Assembly: GCA_023920165.1 (NCBI GenBank)
Contig: CP089276.1
Span: forward strand, 4,588,001 to 4,652,000
From: Curvularia clavata
Taxonomy: Eukaryota
Direction of reading: 5' to 3'
Length of the DNA stretch: 64,000 bases
Below the pieces are notes generated by a model that saw only the letters and a program-made list of their open reading frames with translations, was not told the DNA's origin and did no database searches. Shown piece by piece: positions 51,265-54,199 of the stretch (the stretch's first letter is position 1; each line of letters starts with the position of its first letter). A program made the position numbers and the translations under genes.

Positions 51265-52330
51265 TTAATCACCGGCAACTGCGGCCTCGTACTCCTTGTT
51301 AAGCCTTGCCTTGGCTTTTTCCAAGTTCTTGATGTCATTGGTGATCTTCCTCTTGGCTTGACCCTTGGCCCCCTCCTTCTCGGACATTTTTTGCAAAATC
51401 TCTTCATCAATGTCATTGATGCGCTTCTGAAGCTCATCAGTGACATCCTCGGCAACCTTGACCTAAAGAACCAAGTTAGTCCAAATTGGGGCAATTTGGC
51501 GTAAATAGGGGGGAAAAGGATCACAAACCTCCTTCTTGCGCCCACCAGAGCCATACTTGGACTTCTTGACCCTTGCCTCGACCAAAGTTTCCACCTCGAT
51601 CTCATGAGCCTTCCTCTTGACCTCTTCATCCTTCTTGGAGCGGCCAAGGGCAGAAGTCTTCACACCAGAGCGGGGATCATCTTCCTCCTCGATGGCACCA
51701 GAGGAAAGAGACAGATGAGTAGCATGAGGCTCAAACCTACACAAATTAGTCCAATTTGGGCCAGATTTAGGAAAATTGGATCACTTACTTCTTGAGTGAC
51801 TCAACAATAGGCTTGCTGAACATACTAAGCCTAGTAACGGCCACCTCGTACATTTCCCTGCGCTCAGCACGAACTTCAGCCTCATTGGCACCCTCGGGGA
51901 TATCTTTGTCAATGGCATGGAAGGCATCCTCAACCTTCCCAATGAGCTGGCCAAGTCTCACCCAGTCGGGGGAGAACTTGTCGGGAGGAGGCACCTAACC
52001 ACTCATTTAGCTCCAAATTGGACCAAATCAGAGCAAAACAGGGCAACTTACCGCAAAACAGACACGGTTGATGTAAGAGCAGCGAAGACACTTCATCACC
52101 TGCCTAGGCATACCGCCAGACTCCGGTTCAACCTTGTAGCCAGACCAAGCCTCAGCTACCTCAGGATTGTCGATGTCCAACATAACGCAACCCGCTCTGC
52201 CAAAAGTAACGGGCTCATTATCCCTGAAGGCGTTCAGACAGCACACACAAGCGTAGTAAGACCTCTGGCCCTTGCGTACGAACAGGTTTGACACCGTACT
52301 GCGGTTGACGGATCCAAGTGCGTTCGTCAT
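51265..52330 (-). CDS. Spliced antisense accessory gene of Gypsy B (296 aa; Cys cluster + charged coiled coil)
   Basis: Exons 52330-52052, 51994-51789, 51736-51529 and 51462-51265. Introns of 57, 52 and 66 nt have GTAAGT/GTAAGT/GTTTGT donors, CTAA(A/T/C) branch sites and TAG acceptors. Phases join into an uninterrupted 891-nt frame with ACCATG context. Probable 5'UTR intron at 52598-52423. Confidence 0.85.
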
Positions 52331-54199
52331 GGTTCAAGTGGGTCTTGAAGGCCCCAATTTGGGGGTGTCTGGGACGAATCGGTCGAATCTGTCGCGAAAT
52401 GGATCGTATGGGAGGAAACAGCCTAAAAAGAAAAGTCAGCAGAAAACTCCAAGTCCAGGGGAAGAACCTCAGAAAAAGGCAACAAAACCAAGGTCGACTG
52501 CAAACTGGCCCAAATTGGGCCAAACTGTTGCAAACAGACCGTGGGTGGAAGGTGTCGGGCCCAAACTGAGAAGACCCACAAAATGGGAGTCTACTTACCA
52601 AAGTGGGGTTGGTGGACTGTGGGGTGTACTGGGCTTAGTCAAAAACTGGCTATTGTATCCCTGGATCCGCACTAAATTAGCGCGTCACGTGACTCTTGGC
52701 GCTGCCCAGGAGTACCCTGATGGGCCGGGTTGGCCCAAAGTGGGGCAGTCGGCTAGGCAGCAGCGCAAAACTCCGCTATTATGACGTCATAGCCCTGGGG
52801 CGGTGAGCAAGTAAAATACACCCTCCAACCCACACGGCGGCATCACCCAGTAATCGCTCAAACTGGGCGGCAAGCATGATAAGTTGCGCAGCTGGGACAG
52901 CTGCACCCTAAGAAGGGAGGTATTGTCAGGACCTGGTCCAAATTGGGACATGTTGGTCCAATTCCCTCCTTCTTCACGCTAGTTAGTCAGCTAGGGCTTA
53001 CCTAAGGCTATAAAGCCTCCACGATCGCTAGAGGTGCTCGATAGCGATTCGTCTCGTGAATACATGGCTGTTAAAGCATAGTTCTCTCTCATCTATCTCG
53101 TGCTGTACCTTCACGCCACTAACAGTCTAACAATAATTAGTACCAACTTAGTCTCTATTAGTACTACGCAAACAACTATAAGTATGCGTGGATCTACTAG
53201 ACGGGTTGCGTCCATAACTTCTGCCCAACATATTGGCAAGCTAAGCAAGGATCTAACTAGAATCTAACTAGTATTCCTGGATACCCCAAATATAGCTAGA
53301 TATAGTCAGAGTGTACTAATATAGGATGCGCAAGGCACCTATAGGATAAGCGCACCGCAATACACTTTCCTAGAAGAGATAGCCCAAGAGAAGTGGTAGA
53401 TATGCAAACTACCTATATTATTTAAAGTAAGGGCAACGTATAATAAGTATGTAACTAACCTTTATGGCACACTTGTCTCTTAGATAAATACGAGAAATAC
53501 GAAGTAAAAAAACTTTATAATAGATTTATAAAGAAACTATAGACTTTTTTAGGCTAGCGCTATGAAGGTAGGGCCTCTCTAGGAAAATCAACTTAGTAAA
53601 CTTCCTAGGATTAATTAAGCTTATAGTAAAGTGTTACAAGTAACAAAGAAGGATCTCTCCTTGACGATGGCCGCAGGTAGGAGACCATTGGGCGACACGT
53701 CAGAAGGTAATGATCCCCGCGGAAGGGCGATCACATGACTGGCCTCAGGCCAAGACCGGGAAACCACGCTAGTATGTGAGGACACGCTCACACGTGACCA
53801 AAGTGACTTCAGGGACTTCAGAGAACACAGGGGTTATTCCGTGAGGACAGTGAGGACAGGACCGGAAGCAATGGGTATAAGAATGTGTTGGATTTCATTA
53901 TTACACTCGTTGTGGTCAACTCAGCAAAGTATCTTTCATAGTTACCTTTCATACTCAGATTGATACTAGTTATTCTATCTTCCAATAGGATTGGTTTTGT
54001 CTATCTTCCGTTAATCCCTACCACCGAATCGCCAGACAACTACCTCACGGTATACTTCATAGAAACTGGCCTCGCCCTAACCCGGAATCTAGGCTAGGTA
54101 AGTATATTCCCAACTAACCAGTAGGACCCCGTGTAACACTTTGACCACCCACGGATTCGGTAAGCGGTTTAACACCAAGCGTCCGATTGAGATATCACC

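Follow-up and report, generated by a model that had tools for sequence, protein, structure and literature searches.

A probable intron-containing antisense gene between pol and the 3' LTR of a fungal Ty3/gypsy chromovirus

Introduction

Genes located between pol and the 3' long terminal repeat (LTR) of a retrotransposon, on the strand opposite to gag and pol, have already been published, and the locus analysed here adds another example. The closest described system is brtn, an antisense extra gene of the Boty-like elements of Botrytis and Sclerotinia (Zhao et al. 2011, Virology 417:248, as presented in passages of PMC8365987, PMC7264820 and PMC4227169), which one of these passages (PMC8365987) gives as absent from the latest B05.10 annotation. 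For plants, a review section (PMC7264820) describes antisense additional open reading frames (aORFs) between pol and the 3' LTR in maize Grande (gene23), rice RIRE2, Silene Retand and Phaseolus PvRetro13, and likens such open reading frames (ORFs) to retroviral antisense genes in general. Additionally, an "additional ORF with unknown function" appears in a figure legend of a published survey of chromoviruses in fungi (PMC2864245). In this work, we analyse an antisense gene carried by element B, a Ty3/gypsy chromovirus found in a 64,000-nucleotide (nt) stretch of Curvularia clavata contig CP089276.1 (4,588,001-4,652,000, forward strand); this whole stretch is hereafter called the window, and positions refer to it.

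To our knowledge, annotations seldom include the extra genes of retrotransposons, and we know of no antisense one with a known function. Among retroviruses, HTLV-1 has the spliced gene HBZ, read in antisense from the 3' LTR, and the HBZ product, a bZIP protein, is a nuclear regulator. The gene of element B resembles HBZ in its antisense orientation, its place at the 3' end of a retroelement, its apparent splicing and a suspected helical, dimer-type C-terminus. This is an analogy only, as the two proteins are not homologous, and the bZIP of the one stands against the six-cysteine domain of the other.

As far as the passages on brtn describe it, element B and Boty share the type of carrier (a fungal Ty3/gypsy element with a chromodomain) and the opposite-strand extra gene between pol and the 3' LTR, whereas element B differs in size (7.3 kb, with 209-nt LTRs). 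None of the proteins matched by exon 1 of our gene, by its annotated homologue P0006 or by the family profile is named brtn, the brtn sequence itself not having been compared. The plant aORFs, compared here by description only, are alike in place, orientation, conservation within families, lack of similarity to known proteins and suspected nuclear or regulatory role, to the extent covered by the review section (PMC7264820), but they belong to another kingdom and to other element lineages, and the frame in element B needs three introns removed. In common with the aORFs, our gene lies inside a complete element between pol and LTR, is antisense to gag-pol and is present in a related element (the contig L001, described below). 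A term search of the literature for a six-cysteine antisense gene of fungal chromoviruses found nothing beyond brtn, the plant aORFs and PMC2864245, a result that leaves its absence unproven.

Based on a predicted gene model, a diverged relative and a small protein family, we consider it likely that element B carries a real antisense protein gene, which would be transcribed inward, relieved of four introns by splicing and translated into a protein of 296 amino acids (aa). Its transcription, splicing and role are inferred.

Results

A predicted spliced frame on the antisense strand of element B

Element B is a young, complete Ty3/gypsy chromovirus, with an antisense third gene between pol and the polypurine tract (Table 1). 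It has the chromovirus domain order (protease, reverse transcriptase, RNase H, integrase), a C-terminal chromodomain, TG..CA LTRs and a short target duplication. The Pfam matches of its pol comprise RVT_1 (E 4.5e-38), RT_RNaseH (E 6.8e-31), Integrase_H2C2 (E 4.2e-19) and Chromo (E 1.8e-17), in addition to rve and SH3_Tf2-1. The terminal repeats (45799-46009 and 52922-53132, 211 nt) are 100% identical, with the LTR proper starting at 45801 and 52924. From the stop codon of pol (50976) to the polypurine tract (52909) there are 1.9 kb, which the antisense gene fills on the strand opposite to gag and pol. No second copy of element B was found within the window, either by blastn of the element or by tblastn of the exons and homologues.

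Table 1. Element B and the predicted parts of its antisense gene, in window coordinates (UTR, untranslated region).
Feature	Position	Strand	Remarks
Target-site duplication ATAAT, left copy	45796-45800	.	Identical 5 bases at 53133-53137
Element B, Ty3/gypsy chromovirus	45801-53132	+	7.3 kb
5' LTR, TG..CA	45801-46009	+	209 nt; 100% identical to 3' LTR
gag, 410 aa, CCHC zinc knuckle	46042-47274	+	Pfam zf-CCHC E 1.7e-08
pol: protease, reverse transcriptase, RNase H, integrase, SH3, chromodomain	47322-50976	+	Pfam; two overlapping frames
Exon 4, 65 codons + TAA, predicted helical lysine/glutamate-rich C-terminus	51265-51462	-	198 nt; P0006 C-terminus weakly collinear
Intron 3, GTTTGT..TAG, phase 0	51463-51528	-	66 nt; palindrome at 51481
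Exon 3, LSLSSGA motif, basic clusters	51529-51736	-	208 nt; aligns with L001 exon 3 and P0006 residues 187-232
Intron 2, GTAAGT..TAG, phase 2	51737-51788	-	52 nt; palindrome at 51751; same position and phase in L001
Exon 2	51789-51994	-	206 nt; translation, L001 alignment
Intron 1, GTAAGT..TAG, phase 0	51995-52051	-	57 nt; palindrome at 52013; position and phase shared with L001
Exon 1, 93 codons, six-cysteine domain C-x2-C-x16-C-x32-C-x2-C-x6-C	52052-52330	-	279 nt; homologues
5'UTR, second part	52331-52422	-	Palindrome at 52354; in-frame TGA before ATG
Candidate 5'UTR intron, GTAAGT..TAG	52423-52598	-	176 nt; palindrome at 52510; CTGAC at -17
Presumed promoter and first 5'UTR exon	52599-52908	-	TGACGTCA at 52782, CACGTG near 52685; placed by position
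Polypurine tract and junction before 3' LTR	52909-52923	+	Junction 80% alike to L001 834-874
3' LTR	52924-53132	+	Identical to 5' LTR; ends read
Target-site duplication ATAAT, right copy	53133-53137	.	Matches left copy

The original prediction, made from the letters of the window, had joined four minus-strand pieces through three canonical introns into one frame of 296 aa, and this exact model is borne out by the sequence, by the translations and by the shuffling described below. The spliced frame (MTNALGSVNR...KEYEAAVAGD) is 891 nt long, i.e. 296 codons plus TAA, and starts at an ATG at 52330, two codons downstream of an in-frame TGA. Each of the three coding introns has a branch motif of the CTRAY type 13-17 nt before its end, and the G+C content by codon position of the spliced frame (0.56/0.39/0.62) follows a coding pattern, with poorer introns (0.37-0.48). 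The further intron that had been proposed for the 5'UTR has the signals expected of it and is kept as a candidate. TGACGTMA was considered as a promoter mark and set aside, its count in the window not being above chance.

In order to estimate how often such a frame arises by chance, we determined the longest frame from ATG to stop that could be assembled by removing up to three introns under strict fungal rules (a GTNNGT donor, a YAG acceptor, a branch motif and a length of 45-100 nt). The 1945-nt stretch from pol to the LTR yields the 296 codons, a length reached by none of 200 dinucleotide shuffles (mean 84, standard deviation 26, maximum 196). Among 126 tiles covering the whole window on both strands, splicing brought a gain to at least 200 codons in two tiles only, all other frames of at least 200 codons being unspliced: these two are the antisense gene (from 126 to 296 codons) and positions 1-1945 of the plus strand (from 407 to 500), which overlap an ORF (386-1609) with a fungal transcription-factor domain.

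The same gene in a diverged element

L001, a metagenome contig of 2189 nt, is the only DNA relative returned by the metagenome scans and the one far relative with DNA context. Its positions 834-874 align at 80% with 52931-52891 of the window (polypurine tract and LTR start), and its gene therefore adjoins an LTR, in the same orientation as in element B. Exon 1 of L001 is also 279 nt long, ends at a GTAAGT donor and is 46% identical to exon 1 of the window; it is followed by intron 1 (62 nt, phase 0), exon 2 (158 nt) and intron 2 (57 nt, phase 2), with the introns positioned as in the window, and exon 3 starts with DYAPYAARLFLSSGAV in L001 and with KFEPHATHLSLSSGAI in the window. The leader of L001 likewise has a donor at 1318 (CACTTG|GTAAGT), followed after 186 nt by an acceptor at 1503. 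The protein alignment of the two (166 codons, 40% identity) is continuous only after splicing.

Comparison of related elements for conserved splice sites and codon-wise substitution had been put forward as a check on the gene, and L001 answers it on both counts, retaining two intron positions with their phases and showing a ratio of nonsynonymous to synonymous substitution rates (dN/dS) of ~0.34 (pN 0.42, pS 0.68; dS, at 1.78, is saturated). The three codon positions have identities of 0.55, 0.61 and 0.42, and the introns of 0.68 and 0.58, against shuffled means of 0.58 and 0.54. At much shorter distance, all four coding differences between run X8 and the window are synonymous and in third position. 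Coding on the sense strand over the antisense gene was considered and rejected, the window and L001 frames being unlike (E 14).

Since the gene has the same place and introns in two diverged elements, it would have been carried by the lineage for long, under purifying selection. Judged from these alignments, the antisense gene is real, maintained and element-borne. Of the earlier proposal of a separately transcribed, maintained gene, the second half thus stands (on the homologues, L001, the dN/dS value and the differences in X8), whereas transcription and splicing were not directly seen.

A small family with a six-cysteine domain

A HMMER search of exon 1 against 1.84 billion proteins (cut-off E<=0.001) gave six matches, five of them genuine (E 2e-22 to 8e-05, 35-46% identity): four short ORFs (92-100 aa) that come from metagenomes and from assemblies of runs, and P0006, a 309-aa annotated hypothetical protein of Alternaria gaisen (KAB2098925.1). 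The sixth, P0007, was dropped as unrelated (a tandem repeat of 531 aa that matched residues 5-34 only, nine times). A profile search adds two truncated relatives, P0013 and P0014. The family alignment has as invariant residues the six cysteines (C28, C31, C48, C81, C84 and C91), together with N15, G44, G47, K80 and R83.

The short ORFs and cluster mates that extend to the end of exon 1 (P0005, P0011, P0008, P0012, P0009 and P0010) continue with V-S or V-R past the alanine that closes it, as expected of a GTAAGT-type donor read in frame; the annotated P0006 continues A-V-P, like the spliced protein of the window. The databases thus hold the exon-1 frame as short read-through ORFs and one annotated protein, in agreement with the earlier expectation that ORF-based annotation misses this gene. 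Beyond exon 1, P0006 has weak matches in the same order to exon 3 (E 0.002) and to exon 4 (E 0.013), and gave no match to exon 2.

Other searches for relatives returned little. There were no matches in a word search of exon 1 against longer proteins, P0006 retrieved itself alone among proteins of similar length, and no family member was found in the viral contigs searched. Two matches of 16-17 residues in bacterial bins, among the prokaryote genome contigs, were taken as spurious.

The antisense protein comprises a six-cysteine N-terminal domain, probably metal-binding, a charged middle with basic clusters and a C-terminus predicted to be helical. Pfam assigns no family to any of the four exons (exon 4 has a sub-threshold match to Seryl_tRNA_N, E 0.0018), and none of eight family members matches DUF3716 at E<=10 (with HMMER filters on). 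An AlphaFold model of the six-cysteine domain, built on 9 sequences, has a predicted local distance difference test (pLDDT) score of 69, and with this model the best match among PDB folds is at E 2.9 (Foldseek) and the best of a wide structure search (VIA) at Z 2.3. A sequence profile search of the PDB reached E 4.1 at best, and the scores in the ESM Atlas were all <0.9, giving no usable lead. The C-terminus of P0006 is predicted as a confident helical hairpin (pLDDT >90).

Among known cysteine domains we considered the Gal4-type Zn(II)2Cys6 cluster (PF00172), whose spacing is C-x2-C-x6-C-x5-12-C-x2-C-x6-8-C. The antisense protein is like it in having six cysteines, the last three as C-x2-C-x6-C, and a long helical part at a distance. 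This assignment was rejected, as the spacing of the first half (C-x2-C-x16-C, then 32 residues) does not fit and none of the eight members matches at E<=10.

A palindrome in the non-coding parts of the element

The window contains 10 copies of the palindrome CCAAWTTGG, where 0.4 are expected, and all ten lie in element B (45815, 46799, 51077, 51224, 51481, 51751, 52013, 52354, 52510 and 52938). The sites are placed near the start of each LTR (15 nt in), once in gag, in each of the four introns, in the leader before the ATG, in the 3'UTR and further downstream. With at most one mismatch, there are 21 sites inside element B (2.9 per kb) and 6 outside (0.11 per kb), and the four coding exons have none even at this tolerance. 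The extended palindrome, including its flanks, is approximately TGGYCCAAWTTGGRCCA.

In L001 there are five sites (1113, 1409, 1539, 1891 and 2084), in the same layout as in element B: one upstream, one each in the intron and the exon of the leader, one in intron 1 and one in intron 2, with the coding exons again free of it. A site in both coding introns of L001 is an arrangement seen in one of 10,000 shuffles. For the introns of the window, which have the palindrome and the splice signals in common, an introner-like origin may be considered. As the palindrome was kept while synonymous sites became saturated, the motif is constrained. Its core, with only 9 bp, cannot form a fold by itself, and we therefore lean towards a site read on the DNA by a dimeric protein, possibly one encoded by the element, although this is a guess of low probability.

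Occurrence in public sequencing runs

The stretch 51150-52900, or part of it, is present in 20 of the 24 listed runs, which belong to 15 studies and eight organism codes. This spread may mean that the fungus is common, or that several species share the element. Metagenome labels among these runs include surface, sediment, wastewater, soil and root. Four runs (X8, X9, X11 and X14) were examined as contigs, which have no strand information; the runs may be DNA, and gaps in their cover are uninformative. Near-identical contigs carrying parts of the antisense gene are found in all four. Run X9 also has a contig of 47 nt with a depth of ~1200 (neighbouring contigs have 3-5) that matches 49948-49981 with 3 differences, and may be a short repeat or an abundant unrelated sequence.

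Discussion

In the mechanism that we propose, the antisense gene would be transcribed inward from the stretch adjoining the 3' LTR; splicing would then remove the 5'UTR intron and the three coding introns, and the messenger RNA would be translated into the 296-aa protein. We infer transcription and splicing because selection acts on a frame that exists only after minus-strand splicing. Lying opposite to the genomic RNA, the antisense introns would present no splice signals in the element's own RNA, and would consequently be copied along in every round of retrotransposition. The 100% identical LTRs and the target duplication point to a recent passage through an RNA copy with the introns intact. 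The earlier suggestion that antisense introns survive retrotransposition fits these two observations, as well as the sharing of introns with a far relative.

Several observations weigh against this explanation. No splice joint is found in X8, X9, X11 or X14, whose contigs are without strand, and every contig crossing an intron retains it: intron 1 in X9, intron 2 in X8 and intron 3 in X11 and X14. The X14 contig (219 nt) comes from a run labelled cDNA, and may derive from sense genomic RNA, from unspliced antisense RNA or from DNA. The family is tiny in the databases (~9 distinct sequences, of which 2 are truncated and one is an annotated full-length protein), and the absence of a match in Pfam, among solved structures or among folds leaves the function without direct support. 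Finally, the pol of element B is frameshifted, and this copy may thus be non-autonomous; contigs of X9 and X11 are without one base at 49926, which makes pol continuous (1217 codons), and the split is due either to a frameshifted copy or to an assembly slip.

As to the role of the protein, our best guess, a tentative one that falls clearly short of probable, is that it acts in the nucleus on the DNA or RNA of the element itself, as an accessory or regulatory factor, a role of the kind proposed for other antisense extra genes of LTR retrotransposons. A more specific version, which we regard as doubtful, is that the protein, with its six cysteines and long helix, is a sequence-specific factor of element B's own, which would bind TGGYCCAAWTTGGRCCA as a dimer in a circuit of self-recognition or self-regulation. 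If this were true, the introns would be kept partly as safe places for palindrome sites, and the system would be a fungal counterpart of the retroviral antisense regulator.

Other explanations have to be weighed against a gene that serves the element. In the first, an ancestor of the element would have captured a host gene, now a passenger without a role in the element, its conservation coming from a role in the host or from hitchhiking. P0006 lies on a 351-kb contig of Alternaria gaisen and may be an ordinary host gene, and we found no link between the antisense protein and retroelement protein families, both of which would fit a passenger. Nevertheless, two elements at 46% exon-1 identity share the introns and the place of the gene next to the LTR, and the frame is under purifying selection, where a useless passenger should decay; for the plant cases, the relevant part of the review (PMC7264820) argues against transduction of such ORFs. 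We hold a host passenger to be unlikely.

Somewhat less likely again is that the antisense RNA itself matters, as partner in a double-stranded RNA or as a transcriptional brake, with the open frame being secondary. Regulation by antisense transcription is among the roles discussed for such ORFs in the same part of the review (PMC7264820), and the confinement of the palindrome to the non-coding parts of the antisense gene points beyond the protein. An RNA role would leave unexplained the invariant cysteines, the change in third positions, the dN/dS of ~0.34 and the conserved intron phases; moreover, RNA and protein roles can coexist.

That the gene is a relic, no longer expressed and intact in frame only because this copy is very young, seems very improbable to us: the identical LTRs of element B, the failure to see the spliced form in contigs and the two truncated relatives P0013 and P0014 agree with it, but in the far-diverged L001, frame, cysteines and splice sites are all retained throughout the 166 codons available. 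A chance joining of short frames via GT..AG pairs, with nothing in its favour beyond the shortness of each piece, is already refuted by the shuffles, by homologues down to E 2e-22 and by L001, and its probability is practically nil.

With an element-borne protein gene as the preferred explanation, element B is a clean, intact fungal case, offering a testable six-cysteine protein, a gene model fixed by a diverged relative and, as candidate partner site, a conserved palindrome in the non-coding parts, and it exemplifies how antisense introns are carried through retrotransposition. Such antisense genes will be overlooked by annotation that is based on ORFs or made on repeat-masked sequence. The value of the case lies in making an old question, namely what such genes do, testable, and not in any new principle.

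Other features of the window

A second chromovirus, element C (53632-60842), starts 500 nt after element B. Its repeats are identical over at least 300 nt and its gag (696 aa) and pol (1503 aa) are intact; its pol runs into the 3' LTR, and there is thus no room for an antisense gene. Upstream of element B, on the minus strand, a frame of 879 aa (39355-41994) has Copia-type gag and integrase domains, and is adjoined by a 255-aa frame (37816-38583) without a Pfam match. Positions 1-25000 contain ordinary fungal host genes, with products that include a protein with a transcription-factor domain, an iron alcohol dehydrogenase, a GNAT acetyltransferase beside an MFS transporter, and a zf-MYND/DUF4470 protein.

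Within the pol of element B, a contig of run X11 over 49617-49769 has 16 differences to the window, 13 of which are listed, each of them C>T or G>A. The G+C content is only 0.32-0.37 in three blocks of the window (28000-38000, 42000-46000 and 62000-64000). A host among the filamentous ascomycetes would follow if both the base changes in X11 and these low-G+C blocks are what they look like, the outcome of repeat-induced point mutation.

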